This document shows positions 35,794-41,700 of a stretch of 64,000 bases of DNA, in pieces. Position numbers: made by a program. Location: positions 400,206 to 464,205 of the forward strand of contig CAVRBU010000003.1 in the NCBI GenBank assembly GCA_963719315.1, in the 5' to 3' direction. Numbering within the stretch: position 1 is the first letter of the stretch; every line of letters begins with the position of its first letter. This DNA is from an uncultured Planctomycetota bacterium. Lineage in GTDB: Bacteria > Planctomycetota > Planctomycetia > Pirellulales > Lacipirellulaceae.

Positions 35794-38700
35794 GGTGGCC
35801 GACCAGAGCCGCACGATTCGGATTCCGGTTCACATGGTGGAAACCATGAGCCGGGTGCGAAACGTGTCGCGGCAGCTTTTGCAGCGACTAGGCCGCGAGC
35901 CCTCGATCGAAGAAACGGCCCGCGCCGCCGATTGCACGATCGAGGAGGCCCGCCGCGTGCTGGCGATGAGCCGCTACCCGATCAGCCTCGACCGGCCGGT
36001 CGGCAACAGCGAAGACAGCCACTTCGGCGATTTGCTGCCCGATTCGGGCGCCGAGAGCCCGGCGATCGGCGCCGCGCAGGAAATGCTCCGTGGCCAAATC
36101 TCGAAGGTGCTTAAGACGCTCAGCTACCGCGAGCGCGAGATCATCAAACTCCGCTACGGCCTGGGCGACGGCTACAGCTACACGCTGGAAGAAGTCGGCC
36201 ACATTTTCAAGGTCACCCGCGAGCGTATTCGGCAGATCGAAGCCAAAGCCGTCCGCAAGCTGCAGCAGCCGAGCCGCAGCGGCGAGTTGGTTGGGTTTTT
36301 GGATTAAACGAATGACTGTTGAAATGCGTCCGCGATGGCAGAGCATCCCAACAAACACATTCGCGCAGCGATTGAATATGCTGAGCAACGTGGTTGGGAG
36401 TTTGTGAAATCGAGCGCCCGGCGCACAGCTACGGCGCACTTTATTGTCCCCATCACGACAGAGACGGTTGTATACTTCAGGTTTTCAGCACACCGAGAAA
36501 TCCTGAAAGCCATGCGCGGTGGATTCGCCGCCAGATCAATCGTTGCCCCCATGTCGGTGGAGGAACGTAGAATGCCAATGTATGATTTTCAACTCGTTCT
36601 TGGAAATTTGGACGTGATGACCGATGAAATCGCCGACTCGCTTTTCGAGGCGGGGTGTGATGACGGTACGCCGTTCAGCAGCCAGGGTGTGGCGGCGATA
36701 GGATTTTCTCGCGAGGCAAACAGCCTGGAGGAGGCCATCCGATCGGCAATTGCCAACGTTAACAATGCCGGCTTCCTGGTTTCCCGGGCCCTGCCGGCGG
36801 ACGAACGCGTATACGAAAAAATCAATCAGGAACTAAGCGCTTCTGAATGACAACAATTCAAGGCAACTCGTTTGCCTTCTACCAGAGACCGAGGCGTCCC
36901 CGCACGCCCCGGTCTTTTTTCGTGTTCTTGATTGACAGCGGATATTCACCGCGTTACATTGCCTGCGTTCGACGTGCGTTGGTGGTCGGTGGCCATTGTT
37001 GGGCTGCCGACGAACAGGGAACCCGGTGCGAATCCGGGACGGCCCCGCCGCTGTAACCGAGCAAACTCGCGAAGCATTCTGTAAAGAGCCATTGCTTCGA
37101 AGTAGTAGGCACGCTCCGCCGTGCCGTGACGGCATTCGGAGAATGCCTGCTACTTTGGGCGAGAAGGCTGGCTTCGTGACGGCTCGGGAGTCAGAAGACC
37201 TACCAACGCGTGGCATGTGGTTGGCTGCGAGGGACGGCCTCTGCGAGCGTTTGATCTTTTAGGTTGCGATTTTCGCGCCGGTGTTCCGTTTTGGCTGCGC
37301 TTGTCGCAATTGCAAAATGCAAATTGCAAATTGCAAATTGCAAATTCGTCAGTTGCTGCGCGGCCGGTGTAGCGATGTAGGGGCCGCAAGCCGAGAGGCC
37401 CATCGTCGGCCTCGGCTCGGTCGACCCACTGCGCTTACGCTCATCGAGCTGCTGGTCGTTATGGCGATCATCGGTGTACTGGTGGCGATGTTGATGCCGG
37501 CGGTGCAGGCGGCGCGCGAGGCCGCCCGACGGCGCAGTGTCAGAACAATCTGCGGCAGATCGGTGTGGCGCTGCACGTATATCACGATGCGCACCAGCAA
37601 TTGCCGGTAGGTTGCGTCGATAAGCGCGTGCCGAAGTCGAATCCCAACGGCCGGCAACTGGCCTGGTCGGCCGAGCTTCTGCCGCATTTGGAGGAGCAGC
37701 CACTATGGCAGCGGATCGACTTCGGTGCGCCCTACGATAGCGCGGCCAACGCGACGCCCGCGGCGGCCGTGGTCAGCGTTTATCTGTGCCCGAGCACGGT
37801 GCGTTGGGCCGCCGGCCGCGACGGCGCGATCGTCGGCAACACCGGGGCGGCCGGCAGCGCGTTTCGCGCGGCGGCCATCGACTACGGCGGCATCTACGGC
37901 GCGGCACAAGTGTCGCCCGCTGCCAACGGCGTTTTTCTCTACGACCGCGCGGTGAAATTCTCGGAGATCTCCGACGGAACCTCACACACGCTGGCCCTGG
38001 CCGAGGACACGGGCCGCGGTTGGCTCATGGATGGCGAATGGATCAACGGCGAGAACATTTACGATGTCAGTAACCCGATCAACACGCAGCAGCATAACGA
38101 AATCTGGAGCGACCACCCGGGCGGCGCGATGGTGCTGTGGTGCGACGGCGGGGCAACGTTGCTGGCCGAGACGATTGGACTGCCCGCGTTCGCGCGATCT
38201 GTACGCGGGCCGGTAACGATGCGACGAGCGATACGAGGTAAACCGTTCGCATACAAGACAAGTCTCACGCAGAGGCGCAGGGGACGCGGAATGCAACTAC
38301 CGCGGCAATCTCTCCGCGCCTCTGCGTGAGGCCAACAAAGGAGTTTTTCATGAATGCGGCAAAATATTGGATGGTCGTTGGCGGAGTTGTCGTTTTGTTG
38401 GCGTCTGAAACAGCAGCAGCGCCGCCGGGGTTCGTGAAATCGACGATTCCACTCGGCGCACCGCCGGTGGGCGTGGCGTTTGCCGCGGATGGCAGGCTAT
38501 TCGCCCTGGAAGGCGCGGCGTTTGGCGACAGCGAGGCGACGCTCAAAGTGATTGACCCGGACGGATCGTTTTCAGCCAACTTCGCCGTGATGGGCGACGA
38601 CATCAGCAATTTTTTCGTCGGCGGCATGGCCTACGACCCGATCGGCGATCGTGTGCTGATTACGGATAACACATCCGATGGCCGGTTGTACGCGGTCGAT

Positions 38701-41700
38701 GCGGCTGGTGTGAAACAAACCATCGGGATGGGCATTGCGGGAATCGCCGGCGTGGCGGTTCGCAGCACGGGCCAAATCTTCGTGTCCACTGCCCCCTTTG
38801 GCAGCCCGGGGGAAGTGCTGCAAGTGGATCGGACGACGGGCGTTACAACGCCGGTGCTGGGCGGGCTCGGTTATGGAGCGGGCATGGCATTCGATCCCGG
38901 CGGTAATCTCATCGTGCAGGATGCCAGCACCGCGACGTTTCTTGGTAGGCTGCAACGCTTGCCGATGACGGACTCGGCGGGCGTGCTAACGTTGGAAACG
39001 CCCGAACCCCTGCTCGATGGCATGCAATCGAGCGCCGGCTTGAGCGTAACAAGTGACGGCACGATTTTCACGACCGGCAACGGCGGCCTGTTTCGCGTGA
39101 GCGGCACGCCATTGGCCGAAACGTCATTCGACGCCAACGGCAGTGCATTCCAGTTCGCGACCGCGATCGCGTTCGACCCGGGTTCGCAGCCATTCGATGG
39201 TTTTTCCGGACCGGACGGCGGCCGGCTGGCCTACATGGCCGACTTCGGCTTCGCCTCGCAAGATTCGTTCGTCACGTTGCTAACGCCTGCCGAGCCGGGC
39301 GATTACAACGGCGACGGGCACGTCACTGCGACCGATTACGCTGTGTGGCGGGCTGCTTACGGCACTAGTGATCCGTCGGCCGACGGGAGCCGTGATGGCA
39401 CAGTGGACGCGACGGATTATGTGCTTTGGCGGAAGCATTTGCCGACGGCGGGACAAAACACATCTGTTGCCGTCGGTACGAGCGTGCCAGAACCTGTAGC
39501 GATAAGTCCCGCAATTTTCGTAATTCTCTCAATCGCTTTGAGAGCTAACCGAAATTTCGGAATTAGGCATGGGTAAAATGAAACCGCTGCCTAGCCAAAC
39601 GGTCAGCACGCATGCTTGAGTAAGATAGAAGGCTAGTAGAATCGACAAGGGCTCTGCGCCGGCACCGCCTGCCCCCATGCTGACGGTCAAAAGAGTGTAG
39701 CCGAACGCGCCCAGCAGAACGGCGAGACCGAGAACGCTTGCCAATCGAAAGACCCAATGCCAAGAAAAGCTCCACAGAAAAACGCTCGCGAGAGCTAGCG
39801 CTACGTAACTGCACGCAAATGCGATATTGAGCCATTCGCCACCGCGAAAGAACAAATTATTACGCATCAGAGTGGACAATACCGCGACAATTGTCATCAC
39901 AATGAGTAGATGCGCAAGAGAATATTGCCAGGTGTGAACCAAACGACTTCGTCGCCGCCAAAAACTTGTTCGCTGCAAAAACCAAATAGATGCCATTAGC
40001 AACACAACATGTAGTCCGTAATACCCCAGACAGGATGTGAGAACATTCTTACTCGGAAACTGCGCTTGCATTTGAGTAAAACTCACAGTCACTAACGCTG
40101 CGACCACGGTTGTAGTTAGGGGCAGCGTCAACTTCCATACGATTTGCGTCGAGCTCATTGCAGACCAAATGCATACGAGACTTAGCTGGGCAAAAACCAG
40201 CGCATGAAAAGCTACGACAACGTAGCCAGTAGATGGAGATCGTTCGCTTGCCATCCATGTTAGAACTATGGCATCGACGCAAAGCGTCGCCGCGAGCAGT
40301 AGCCAGAAGATGACGGGCGATCGTTGCGGCATGGAAATCGTCAACGCGGCGCTTGCGGCGAGAATGACCACACCGATTCTGCCCCGGAAGGGCAAAAGAT
40401 AATAGCCCAGGGCAAGGCACGGCGAGCGCCGCGAGCTTTGCCGCAGCTCTGGGTTAGGCTGTACCCAGGGCTTCGTCCTGGGCTATCATATTTTGGCCCT
40501 TCAGGCCTGACGAACTCTGGAAGCTGTCGAACTTGGATCACCCGTGCCCAGTGCCTCGCTCATTGAAAAGTGCTGCCTAATTGCCAATCCGGCGGCGGGG
40601 AATCCTACTCAGTACCTCGTCGAGCAGGCGTTCGAGCGGGCCGGTCTCGATTGGCGGTTCATGACGTTCGAGGTCGAGCCGCCGTCGCTCGGCGACGCCA
40701 TGCGGGGAATTCGCGCGCTCGGCTTTCATGGCCTGAAAGTCGGCGACCCTTTTAAGGAGTCGGTCCTCGAGCACGTCGATGACCTCACCGACGCCGCGCG
40801 GCGAAGCGGTTCGGTCAACTGCATTACGGCGACGAATGAGCGACTGATCGGCGACAACACGGAAGGTGTGGCACTCGTGTCGCTCGTTCGACAACAAGCC
40901 GATCCGGCCGGGCGGAACGCAGTGATCGTCGGCGCCGGCCGGCTCGCCCGGGCGGTGGCGATGGAGCTCGCGGCCGCGGGCGTTACGTCGATTACCATCA
41001 CCAGCCGCAACCCCACCGCCGGGCAGCAATTGGCGGAGTCGATTCAGAGACAGTCCTCGGCGACGGCGGCGTTCGTGCCACTAGCCGGAGCCGTCGCGAT
41101 CGATGCCGACACTGCGGTGCTCGTAAACGCCACGTCGCTCGGCTCAACGAAGCCGGAGGCCAAGCTGCCGTTGGACATCGAATCGTTCGGGCCGAAACTC
41201 GTGGTCGTCGAAGCGGCGTACAACACATCGAGGACCTGGTTGACATCGCAGGCGGCTCAGAAGGGCTGCCCGATCATCGATGGCCTTTCGATCTACGTCG
41301 AACAAACGGCGCTCGCCATGCAACGGTGGACAGGCACCATGCTGGACACGACCGCGATGCGGGAAGCGGCGGAAGAGTTTTTGGGAATTTAACGCGGGGG
41401 AATTTGCCACGGAGGGCATCGAGAAGAAGACATTTGTCATTGGTAATTTGTAATTTGAAATTGGTCATTTCGGAAATGGCCAATGACAAATGACAAATTT
41501 GCAATGACAAATTCCATTTGCTTCTTTGTGCCTCCGTGGTGAATTCCTCCGGCTTGCTGTGGAAAGCGCATGGCCGGGGGTTTGTTCATCACTGGAACCG
41601 GGACGGGCGTCGGCAAGACGTATGTTGCAGCGTTAATCGCTCGTGCGCTGGGCGAAGCTGGTAAGCGTGTGGGTGTGTATAAGCCCGTCGCCAGTGGATG

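Follow-up and report, generated by a model that had tools for sequence, protein, structure and literature searches.

A cobalamin riboswitch-led DUF1559 and beta-propeller unit as a proposed envelope module for corrinoid capture and uptake in a soil planctomycete

In the genome of a soil planctomycete of the family Lacipirellulaceae (G000; 5.93 Mb, 90.7% complete), a single cobalamin riboswitch stands in front of two genes, raising the question of what these genes do for the B12 economy of the cell. The answer proposed here—one considered probable, though far from assured—is that they form a B12-repressed envelope module for corrinoid capture and uptake. The features concerned are given below in coordinates of the window, that is, the whole 64,000-nt stretch of DNA that was analysed.

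36932..36960, + strand: sigma-70-like promoter (TTGACA, 17-nt spacer, TACATT; consensus match only)
36963..37221, + strand: cobalamin riboswitch aptamer (RF00174), its peripheral helix enlarged by a 57-nt insertion
37223..37239, + strand: short hairpin just downstream of the aptamer (stem of 5 bp, loop CGAGGGA), read from the sequence
37317..38241, + strand: gene 1, DUF1559/H-X9-DG prepilin-type; start uncertain (37281, 37317 or 37353)
37318..37345, + strand: four tandem TGCAAAT heptamers, in the gene 1 leader or around its start
38262..38332, + strand: strong intercistronic hairpin from folding, member of a REP-like palindrome family
38337..38343, + strand: Shine-Dalgarno-like AAAGGAG of gene 2, 7 nt before the ATG at 38350, by sequence
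38350..39576, + strand: gene 2 (408 aa, ATG start), with signal peptide, propeller, dockerin and PEP-CTERM-like tail
38428..39288, + strand: six-bladed NHL-type propeller of gene 2 (aa 27–313)
39295..39438, + strand: dockerin of gene 2 (aa 316–363; Dockerin_1, E 3e-8)
39484..39573, + strand: PEP-CTERM-like tail of gene 2 (aa 379–408; VPEP, helix, basic residues)
39529..40395, − strand: convergent ORF for a membrane protein (288 aa, no family), which ends the unit

The riboswitch match covers the whole model (positions 1–189) and scores 92.9 bits (E 8.9e-22; gathering score 31.5); it is the only one in the 5.93 Mb of G000, as the earlier note had claimed. The promoter-like site fits 10 of 12 consensus positions and ends 3 nt upstream of the riboswitch. 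The small hairpin behind the aptamer probably belongs to the expression platform; GAGGGA recurs at its position in seven of the ten leaders compared, with a variant in an eighth (L071), and the stem letters vary from locus to locus. Repression of the two genes by B12 is assumed because this riboswitch class usually works in that way. The TGCAAAT array is the only one in G000 with at least three such units.

Two ORFs, 37281–37610 and 37565–38329, are a single gene, gene 1. The former carries the prepilin N-terminus (TIGR02532, score 19.4 vs. a cut-off of 16.3; Pfam N_methyl, 19.4, below its cut-off of 21.2), and the latter the DUF1559 core (PF07596, E 1.7e-33) and the H-X9-DG motif (TIGR04294, 22.7 vs. 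a cut-off of 19). The start formerly placed near 37455 falls within the pilin helix, so that the true start must lie upstream, the candidates being GTG at 37281, ATG at 37317 and TTG at 37353. DUF1559 is a large protein family whose function is not known. The orthologue in G021 (79% identity over 213 columns) was predicted with a pLDDT of 89.2, and type IV pilins or pseudopilins made up about 20 of the 25 highest rows when its model was aligned structurally, headed by PilA4 (Z 5.0) and followed by ComP and EpsG, all weak matches with Z of 5.0 or less, under the aligner's own caution line.

The AlphaFold model of gene 2 (pLDDT 90.6) comprises an N-terminal signal helix, the propeller (27–313) and a C-terminal helix, and structural alignment assigns the propeller to the six-bladed NHL type (Z 26.9, rmsd 2.5, 243 residues). 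The order claimed beforehand (riboswitch, then a prepilin-like DUF1559 gene, then the gene of a secreted six-bladed propeller that carries a dockerin) is borne out by profile searches and by this model; of the composition given for gene 2, propeller and dockerin stand, and the PEP-CTERM tail is visible by eye but matches no PEP-CTERM model even at E≤1. G000 has one copy of the core domain, its next-best propeller reaching only E 4e-9. Gene 1 and gene 2 are a putative co-transcribed unit, against which counts the strong hairpin between them (−56.6 kcal/mol, z −6.06, equalled by none of 200 shuffles). This hairpin was not called a terminator in terminator prediction; an exact 15-mer of its arm has seven copies in G000, and hairpins also occupy this position in G036, G051 and G021. 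These three genomes and G045 share the same convergent neighbour (cluster c5).

Within the family, the riboswitch was found in 60 of 61 genomes, and 69 further riboswitch loci together with the window made up a set of 70. A full-length orthologous DUF1559 gene lies downstream of the riboswitch on the same strand, at a distance of 12–603 nt, in 59 of these loci (E 1e-96 to 1e-126 with an HMM built for the purpose). This amounts to 58 of the 60 riboswitch-bearing genomes, in agreement with the conserved link claimed earlier; the exceptions are G056, in which the contig ends 50 nt past the switch, and G030, which has another layout. The linked genes group in a single clade that excludes 40 of the 41 G000 paralogues (SH-aLRT 98), so the separate clade previously reported is also recovered.

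The gene after DUF1559 is a swappable cassette with three alternative heads and a common dockerin and PEP-CTERM tail: DUF4465 at 18 loci (Pfam E 5e-36 to 8e-55), an unnamed family, P, at 24, and the gene-2-type propeller at eight. By hhalign, P and DUF4465 share homology in their tails (probability 99.4%) but not in their heads. In G045, of the same genus as the window, a P cassette sits between the same flanks. All eight full-length gene-2-type propellers in the 61 genomes are single-copy and riboswitch-linked, lying 1.1–1.4 kb downstream of the switch, which strengthens the acquisition reading. The DUF1559 tree follows partner type, which changes four times (the minimum for five states), as against 28 changes of genus for 22 genera, and the G000 gene falls in a seven-row clade (SH-aLRT 97) comprising all propeller-linked DUF1559 genes. 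Since linkage alone makes neighbouring genes co-inherited, this pattern speaks for a shared cassette, not for physical contact.

The DUF4465 head further strengthens the acquisition reading, DUF4465 being a B12 binder with solved structures whose binding has been demonstrated by experiment. The profile of these loci matches the solved structures 9HMU (E 6e-39) and 9FCT (E 2e-32), and PMC13398666 describes DUF4465 domains as B12 binders and 9FCT as BtuJ1 with B12. The reported extension of the link beyond the family likewise holds: 17 of 80 riboswitch loci of other planctomycete families have a same-strand DUF1559-type gene no more than 4 kb away. One of these adds to the evidence for acquisition: in L121 the order is riboswitch, DUF1559, a 139-aa protein, BtuF (Peripla_BP_2, E 1e-37) and FecCD, that is, BtuC (E 6e-81). 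In another family (L116, L123 and L126) DUF1559 stands together with the small membrane protein DUF6580 behind the riboswitch, and in L153, L160 and L174 alongside PQQ-type propellers. A literature search found no report of the riboswitch–DUF1559 link.

Judged by its gene content, G000 uses B12. The dependence claimed in the earlier note agrees with four matches to B12-binding-domain proteins and with tblastn searches that found no NrdB and only a distant match to the large subunit of ribonucleotide reductase (RNR). The absences it listed—TonB receptor, BtuC/BtuF, corrin pathway and DUF4465—were also recovered: G000 yielded no match to the TonB-receptor barrel, FecCD (BtuC), CbiC (for the corrin pathway) or DUF4465, nor to BtuF by tblastn, absences that are not final at 90.7% completeness. 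Across the family, the TonB-receptor barrel is wholly absent from 42 of 61 genomes, and some TonB receptor occurs in the other 19. G000 does encode pilus-type machinery, namely a prepilin peptidase, two PilT-family ATPases over the cut-off and six secretins, as well as one exosortase. DUF6580 is single-copy in G000 and in 57 of the 61 family genomes, its gene lying outside the window and having no riboswitch linkage in this family; it had no sequence match among solved structures, and no paper containing the term was found. It is a candidate for the inner-membrane step of B12 uptake.

Under the acquisition reading, low cellular cobalamin would let the riboswitch permit expression of both genes. 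A signal peptide would direct export of the gene 2 product, which the dockerin and the PEP-CTERM-like tail would probably hold at the cell surface, with the exosortase sorting it, and its propeller would serve as the corrinoid-catching head in place of the B12-binding DUF4465 of relatives; that the propeller binds B12 is deduced from operon position only. The gene 1 product, as a type-IV-pilin-class protein, would be cut by the prepilin peptidase and then either held in the inner membrane or polymerised out of it. Together with the catcher it may move the vitamin through the outer envelope, substituting for the absent TonB-dependent BtuB step, and passage across the inner membrane would take place elsewhere, most likely through the single DUF6580 protein. 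Gene content, conservation and cassette swap favour in part the cell-surface B12 acquisition system proposed previously, of which the unit may not be the whole, the inner-membrane step lying outside it.

A close parallel is offered by the Btu loci of Bacteroides thetaiotaomicron, with BtuB and the surface B12 binders BtuG, BtuH and BtuJ (DUF4465), where a cobalamin riboswitch controls high-affinity surface corrinoid catchers that feed a transporter in the envelope, as proposed for the unit here. Those catchers include a beta-propeller (BtuG) and a DUF4465 protein (BtuJ1); relatives of the window carry DUF4465 in the propeller's place. Moreover, the third gene of the DUF4465 relatives weakly matches the BtuH-like domain of BtuG1 (8BLW_B 386–474, E 0.0068), an extension that according to PMC10404256 is homologous to BtuH2. 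Unlike in Bacteroides, the constant partner is the type-IV-pilin-class DUF1559 protein, not a TonB-dependent BtuB, and the putative catchers carry dockerin and PEP-CTERM-like tails instead of lipid anchors. BtuG is seven-bladed (PMC10404256), whereas the gene 2 propeller is six-bladed and of NHL type. Sequence searches at E≤1 gave this propeller no match to the BtuG family, and no BtuG chain was among the 50 matches listed in either of two fold searches, consistent with the earlier statement that the propeller bears no specific likeness to BtuG. Escherichia coli BtuB and BtuFCD, under the btuB riboswitch, share with this unit a cobalamin riboswitch before an outer-envelope component of B12 uptake, here a proposed one, and in L121 this switch is still followed by BtuF and BtuC; G000, in contrast, has no match to BtuB or BtuC and none to BtuF by tblastn, and its first gene is pilin-like.

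Gene 1 resembles type IV pilins and type II secretion (T2SS) pseudopilins (PilA, ComP, GspG/EpsG/PulG) in its cleavage/methylation motif, long N-terminal helix and beta-sheet head, and the required peptidase, ATPases and secretins exist in G000. It differs in a head about twice as large, the H-X9-DG motif, the lack of a close structural match (best Z 5.0), some 50 paralogues per genome and a position beside a riboswitch and a candidate surface binder, not in a pilus cluster. ComP, a DNA-uptake pilin, is a precedent for a pilin binding cargo destined for import.

In another reading, with the same purpose, the DUF1559 protein is not part of a fibre but an inner-membrane-anchored periplasmic receptor or shuttle that, like BtuF, passes corrinoid to a carrier. 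The Pfam name of the family (SBP_bac_10), the failure of tblastn to find BtuF in G000 and a head of about 230 residues, far above that of the fibre-forming pilins it weakly matches, all point this way; however, L121 has DUF1559 beside a real BtuF and BtuC, hence no replacement of BtuF there, and the step missing from these genomes is that at the outer membrane. This arrangement is regarded as unlikely, if worth keeping in mind.

Quite unlikely is a surface change upon B12 starvation without transport, in which pilin and propeller adhesin would attach the cell to B12 producers or particles. NHL propellers, dockerins and pilins are frequent adhesion parts, and the riboswitch-led operons L066, L084, L088 and L091 of relatives contain only large PEP-CTERM surface proteins, but at 18 loci the alternative head is one proven to bind B12, a small molecule, and DUF1559 is joined to BtuF–BtuC and to DUF6580 in other families. 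The propeller could also be an enzyme of the lactonase/strictosidine-synthase type acting on a corrinoid or a B12-sparing substrate, the riboswitch then controlling salvage or bypass. This is judged improbable: the best Foldseek rows are indeed strictosidine synthase, Drp35 and SGL lactonases (E 5e-10), and homologues are annotated in some sources as 'sugar lactone lactonase YvrE', but no enzyme family reaches its Pfam cut-off, the structural aligner places binding-type NHL propellers first (Pizza6 26.9, PknD 25.9, TRIM) with lactonases effectively tied at about 25, and a binding role better suits both the surface anchor and the exchange for B12 binders that are not enzymes.

Finally, gene 1 is spread in the assembly over three frames with two frameshifts, behind 37531 and behind 38190, and not over two frames with one 1-nt change as thought before; the third frame holds the C-terminal ~15 residues and the true stop (38239–38241), in agreement with same-genus orthologues. 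Short-read metagenome contigs otherwise identical to the window contain one extra base at each break (runs X1 and X4 behind 37531, X1 and X2 behind 38190), so that gene 1 is intact and both breaks are errors of the assembly, the likelier of the two explanations offered in the earlier note. A decaying pseudogene in a unit no longer functional, which the three frames might suggest, is scarcely credible given those bases, the alignment of all three pieces to orthologues without further damage, and a like splitting into neighbouring pieces in at least five other DUF1559 genes of G000.

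The cobalamin riboswitch that precedes the DUF1559 prepilin-type gene (gene 1) and the propeller gene (gene 2) is the single match in the 5.93-Mb, 90.7%-complete Lacipirellulaceae genome under study (G000), as the earlier note had stated. The unit and its flanks comprise the following features, with coordinates counted along the window.

34739-36307: rpoD, upstream of the unit
Upstream of the unit: 171-aa ORF with no family match
3 nt upstream of the riboswitch: sigma-70-like site (TTGACA, 17-nt spacer, TACATT; 10 of 12 consensus matches)
36963-37221, forward strand: cobalamin riboswitch RF00174 (92.9 bits, gathering score 31.5; all model positions, 1-189, covered)
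37223-37239: conserved hairpin directly 3' of the riboswitch, from the leader comparison
37281-37610: ORF with the prepilin cleavage/methylation motif TIGR02532 (19.4 against a cut-off of 16.3)
37565-38329: ORF, the middle-frame piece of gene 1, with DUF1559 PF07596 (SBP_bac_10; 117.3 bits against a gathering score of 23.3, E 1.7e-33) and the H-X9-DG C-terminal motif TIGR04294 (22.7 bits against a cut-off of 19)
38262-38332: strong hairpin between genes 1 and 2 (z -6.06)
38350: ATG of gene 2 (408 aa), with AAAGGAG upstream
Gene 2 residues 316-363: dockerin type I PF00404 (34.1 bits against a gathering score of 22.9, E 3e-8)
39529-40395, reverse strand: convergent membrane-protein ORF, closing the unit downstream

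A terminator-like hairpin follows the gene preceding the riboswitch, and aroE and then bioD lie beyond the convergent ORF. The aptamer carries a 57-nt insertion in a peripheral helix. No terminator was called in the riboswitch leader, and folding of the leader (z -1.09) gave neither a clear terminator nor a clear RBS-sequestering helix. A kissing loop between aptamer and platform (CUCGCG/CGCGAG) was considered and dropped, since its aptamer half is present in G000 alone among the 10 leaders compared. A tandem heptamer, (TGCAAAT)x4 at 37318-37345, lies in the leader or at the possible start of gene 1 and is the sole such array in the genome; a change in its copy number would alter the frame if translation starts at 37317. 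The hairpin between the two genes was not called a terminator. It is a member of a REP-like palindrome family with the arm CTCACGCAGAGGCGC, found elsewhere on the contigs of G000 at C2:1629303, C11:148657, C2:1908635, C6:39103, and C17:84772, and related hairpins lie between the DUF1559 and propeller genes of three relatives (G036, G051, and G021). Downstream of the unit, an Acido-Lenti-1 RNA (RF01687; 40464-40508, forward strand; 41.8 bits against a gathering score of 37, E 4e-6) was found 36 nt upstream of the shikimate dehydrogenase gene (40544-41392).

Three-frame translation and tblastn with the G036 orthologue showed that gene 1 spans three frames, with the N-terminal helix in one, the core in another, and the final ~15 residues in a third, and that its true stop is at 38239-38241. 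The earlier note, which had read two frames and placed the start near 37455, is corrected on both points: the start precedes the pilin helix, with 37281, 37317, and 37353 as candidates. Contigs from four soil-metagenome runs of one study (X1-X4), possibly the source sample, were aligned to 37250-38450. In contigs with 0-1 other differences from the window, an additional base follows 37531 (X1 and X4) and another follows 38190 (X1 and X2), and these two positions coincide with the two frame breaks; the contigs were used for these two bases alone, their cover of the 1.2-kb stretch being partial and the uncovered parts uninformative. Since the missing base is present in contigs at both breaks, and the assembly likewise splits five or more further DUF1559 genes of G000 into adjacent pieces, the breaks are treated as assembly errors, as had been suspected, and gene 1 as intact. 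The G000 assembly seems in general to drop single bases, and in the leader one short-read contig has two additional letters after 37273.

For the assignment as a prepilin, a leader followed by a hydrophobic helix of the form (G/A)-(F/L/M)-T-L-x-E-L-L, together with a model above its cut-off, was taken as the criterion. Besides TIGR02532, the ORF at 37281-37610 gave a Pfam N_methyl score of 19.4, below the cut-off of 21.2, and weak matches to the N-termini of GspG, ComGC, and PilA. The residue before the cleavage site in G000 is Ala, not Gly, as in the G036 orthologue. Full-length orthologues of gene 1 match PF07596 at E 1e-37 to 1e-53.

Within the family Lacipirellulaceae, the riboswitch was detected in 60 of 61 genomes (70 matches), and in 52 of the 52 that are at least 90% complete. 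The ORFs within ~4.5 kb downstream of the 69 other family riboswitches were clustered and then searched with an HMM of the DUF1559 cluster. A full-length DUF1559 match on the same strand, 12-603 nt downstream, is present at 59 of the 70 loci, so that the family-wide pairing previously claimed holds in 58 of the 60 riboswitch-bearing genomes. In one of the two exceptions (G056) the contig ends 50 nt past the switch, and the other (G030) has a different layout. The 11 non-pairing loci lead to class Ia nrdAB (three), a TonB receptor (one, in G034), a contig end (one), a PEP-CTERM protein of family Q (L040), a DUF1570/peptidase-MA-like protein (L070), or large PEP-CTERM proteins with a different DUF1559 paralogue 2.8-4.4 kb later (four). 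A second kind of riboswitch operon is seen at L066 (G036), L084 (G038), L088 (G058), and L091 (G030), and consists of two PEP-CTERM proteins (527-872 aa), homologues of the head family P that occupies the gene 2 place in other relatives, followed by a DUF1559 paralogue of another clade.

The gene after DUF1559 is one of three types in 50 of the 59 DUF1559-led loci: a DUF4465 protein (18 loci, E 5e-36 to 8e-55), a protein of the unnamed family P (24 loci), or a propeller (8 loci). The propeller loci are those of G000, G021, G036, and G051, which belong to the window's genus, and of G015, G024, G035, and G048. The remaining nine carry PEP-CTERM proteins of type R or S, or are cut off or unclear. 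In hhalign comparisons, the dockerin and PEP-CTERM tails of family P and DUF4465 proteins align (probability 99.4%) and the heads show no profile likeness; judged by sequence, the tails are a shared module. Among solved structures, the family P profile matches dockerins alone, and the planctomycete DUF4465 profile matches the DUF4465 structures 9HMU (E 6e-39) and 9FCT (E 2e-32). Divergent DUF4465 domains are reported to bind B12, 9FCT being BtuJ1 with B12, and to occur beside TonB receptors and propellers, in a paper that mentions neither planctomycetes nor pilins (PMC13398666).

A third gene, encoding a PEP-CTERM protein of family Q, R, or S, is usual in relatives and is often followed by a class-I methyltransferase; G000 lacks both. 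The sole match of the Q profile below E 0.1 among solved chains is a weak one, to residues 386-474 of BtuG1 (8BLW_B, E 0.0068). The C-terminal extension of BtuG1 is homologous to the B12 binder BtuH2, according to PMC10404256, and the likeness of Q to this extension may serve as a weak lead. The class-I SAM methyltransferase (Methyltransf_11, ~265 aa) is present at 27 family loci (e.g., L046, 3619-4455, and L071, 3735-4547), on the strand of the operon and after a gap of 180-360 nt; tblastn found no homologue in G000.

With the propeller profile, 8 of the 61 family genomes proved to have a full-length copy (E 7e-127 to 7e-194), always a single one, and each of these genes lies 1.1-1.4 kb downstream of its own genome's riboswitch. 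All other matches in the 61 genomes are to the tail alone, and the next-best propeller in G000 reaches E 4e-9. No P, Q, or DUF4465 heads were found in G000.

The relationship between DUF1559 and its partner was followed in a tree (quick IQ-TREE, LG+G4) of 107 DUF1559 proteins, namely 44 family orthologues, the G000 core, 41 full-length G000 paralogues, and 21 proteins from other riboswitch loci, with split paralogues and orthologues missed by the ORF caller omitted. The family orthologues form one clade (SH-aLRT 98) together with L161, an orthologue from another family, and a single G000 paralogue (C4:735128), in agreement with the riboswitch-linked clade reported before, which one G000 paralogue had likewise joined. 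With its core in the corrected frame, G000 falls within a seven-row clade (SH-aLRT 97) that holds all the propeller-linked DUF1559 genes of the tree. On this tree, partner type requires four changes, the fewest that five states allow, and genus 28 changes for 22 genera. Furthermore, in G045, a member of the window's genus, a P cassette lies between the same flanking genes. Thus, DUF1559 and its partner move as one cassette—a pattern that is no sign of physical contact, because the two are adjacent genes.

Gene 2 has 60 homologues (48-71% identical), all of them unnamed or labelled 'hypothetical' or 'YvrE', from which an AlphaFold model was built (pLDDT 90.6). In the model, a signal helix precedes a six-bladed propeller (residues 27-313), which is followed by the dockerin and by a terminal helix after P-E-P. 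With a structural aligner, the propeller matches Pizza6 with Z 26.9 and an rmsd of 2.5 Å over 243 residues, identifying the fold as a six-bladed NHL-type propeller; the TRIM2/TRIM3 NHL domains follow at Z 26.0, PknD at Z 25.9, and lactonases at ~25. The Pfam NHL repeat scores 15.3 bits, below the cut-off of 20, and the best Foldseek rows are strictosidine synthase, Drp35, and SGL lactonases (E ~5e-10). Unlike the BtuG2 propeller, which PMC10404256 describes as seven-bladed, that of gene 2 has six blades, as do its best structural matches; the BtuG family PF16819 has no sequence match in gene 2 at E<=1, and no BtuG chain is among the best 50 rows of Foldseek or of VIA-align. At the C-terminus, VPEP is accompanied by a helix spanning residues 385-404 and by basic residues; P380, E381, and P382 vary little or not at all across the homologues. 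The PEP-CTERM models (PF07589 and TIGR02595) give no match at E<=1, and so the tail, a PEP-CTERM anchor in the earlier note, is named PEP-CTERM-like.

The fold of DUF1559 was modelled with the G021 orthologue, 79% identical to the G000 core, and 44 orthologues (pLDDT 89.2); the model has a mixed head and, at its N-terminus, a helix of 52 residues. A pilin fold was defined as a long alpha-1 helix packed on an antiparallel sheet, with a structural match to solved pilins. Foldseek matched the model to the helix of full-length pilins alone (E 0.27); in VIA-wide, pilins and pseudopilins make up ~20 of the best 25 rows, with Z at most 5.0 (PilA4 5.0, ComP 4.3, EpsG 4.3, PulG 3.5), middling by the tool's own scale. 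Prediction of a complex between the G021 propeller plus dockerin (residues 19-360) and the G021 DUF1559 head (residues 30-272) scored 0.02 against a mark of 0.32, a value that speaks neither way.

No paralogous family of planctomycetes is larger than DUF1559. According to PMC10632474, a single species carries 68 copies, of which two are essential, and the function of the family is unknown. G000 has ~50 DUF1559 genes (60 matches), one alone of which lies behind a riboswitch. A small lipoprotein gene is located 0-100 nt downstream of ~20 of the 41 full-length paralogues (e.g., C7:29624, C2:1297499, and C1:618880), encoding a protein of ~130-180 aa with a lipobox and a 'V-x-G-x-V-T-L-D-G-Q-P-L' motif, which suggests a general DUF1559-plus-partner layout.

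With respect to transport, no match to a TonB-receptor barrel, FecCD, CbiC, or DUF4465 (including the DUF4465/BtuJ domain PF14717) was found in the 90.7%-complete G000, and none to BtuF by tblastn, which accords with the reported absence of the usual B12 importers; 42 of the 61 family genomes are without any TonB-receptor barrel. G000 has four B12-binding-domain matches. No NrdB was found by tblastn, and the RNR large subunit gave a distant match alone, sequence results consistent with a class II enzyme. The genome encodes a prepilin peptidase, six secretins, one exosortase, two PilT-family ATPases above the cut-off, and five other T2SSE-type ATPases.

The riboswitch occurs in 143 of 151 sampled genomes of the phylum, and 80 loci from 74 of these 143 were compared, picked from the matches listed and mostly from single-match genomes. 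A DUF1559-type gene lies on the same strand within 4 kb in 17 of the 80 loci. A TonB-dependent receptor comes first in 12, and others open with BtuF, FecCD, MetE, NrdA, CbiK, or DUF4465. At L121 (G117; 490-3754), a locus of another planctomycete family, the riboswitch is followed by a DUF1559-type prepilin, a 139-aa protein, BtuF (Peripla_BP_2), and BtuC (FecCD); at L123, likewise outside the Lacipirellulaceae, by DUF1559, a 120-aa protein, a Dph6-like ATPase, and DUF6580, which is also present at L116 and L126; and at L153, L160, and L174, by a dockerin protein, a PQQ-type propeller, and DUF1559. DUF6580 is a small membrane protein, with one gene in G000 (C2:2069139-2069630, reverse strand) and a single copy in 57 of the 61 family genomes. 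It has no sequence match among solved structures and no B12-themed neighbours in G000, and the term is absent from the searchable literature. It is a candidate inner-membrane B12 carrier.

In the most likely mechanism, low B12 would open the switch and both proteins would be made. The propeller, judging from its operon position, would be exported and anchored and would catch corrinoids. The pilin-class protein, cut by the prepilin peptidase, would couple capture to passage across the outer envelope in place of BtuB, a role proposed because of the absences and of its constancy across the cassettes, and DUF6580, given its linkage in another family, would carry the vitamin inward. DUF1559 may belong to a fibre that retracts, or it may act as a receptor anchored in the membrane; that it simply replaces BtuF is argued against by L121, where both are encoded in one operon.

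A broader reading, which we put forward tentatively and consider rather unlikely, is that DUF1559 proteins are pilins, each specific for one cargo, of a retractile machine resembling a type IV pilus. This machine would draw nutrients held by a partner binder through a secretin into the periplasm and so be the equivalent, in planctomycetes, of TonB-dependent transport. The pair under the B12 switch would then be the first for which the cargo is identified; each of the ~50 paralogues in a genome, about half of them followed by a small lipoprotein gene, would serve another substrate, and the DUF4465, P, and NHL propeller heads would be alternative corrinoid catchers on one pilin lineage.

In the searchable literature, outside which subscription journals lie, nothing links DUF1559 with cobalamin and no function is assigned to DUF1559; nor was anything relevant found there on planctomycetes with the cobalamin riboswitch, on the B12 riboswitch with a pilin, or on PEP-CTERM with the B12 riboswitch. 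New from the window are the NHL-propeller cassette, the exclusive riboswitch linkage, the cassette-swap pattern, and the resolution of an apparent pseudogene. The B12 riboswitch gives one DUF1559 clade a defined signal and a probable ligand, and its function is thereby open to binding, reporter, and knockout tests. If true, the proposed mechanism would account for the supply of a 1.3-kDa vitamin to bacteria that depend on B12 yet have neither BtuB nor BtuCD; the pair would point to a transport principle other than TonB-dependent uptake, with the six-bladed NHL propeller as a new kind of candidate corrinoid binder. Other propellers also stand first or second behind cobalamin riboswitches in the phylum, namely YncE-like, seven-bladed lactonase-like, and PQQ/BamB-like ones (L112 in G113, L127 in G082, and L153, L160, and L174).
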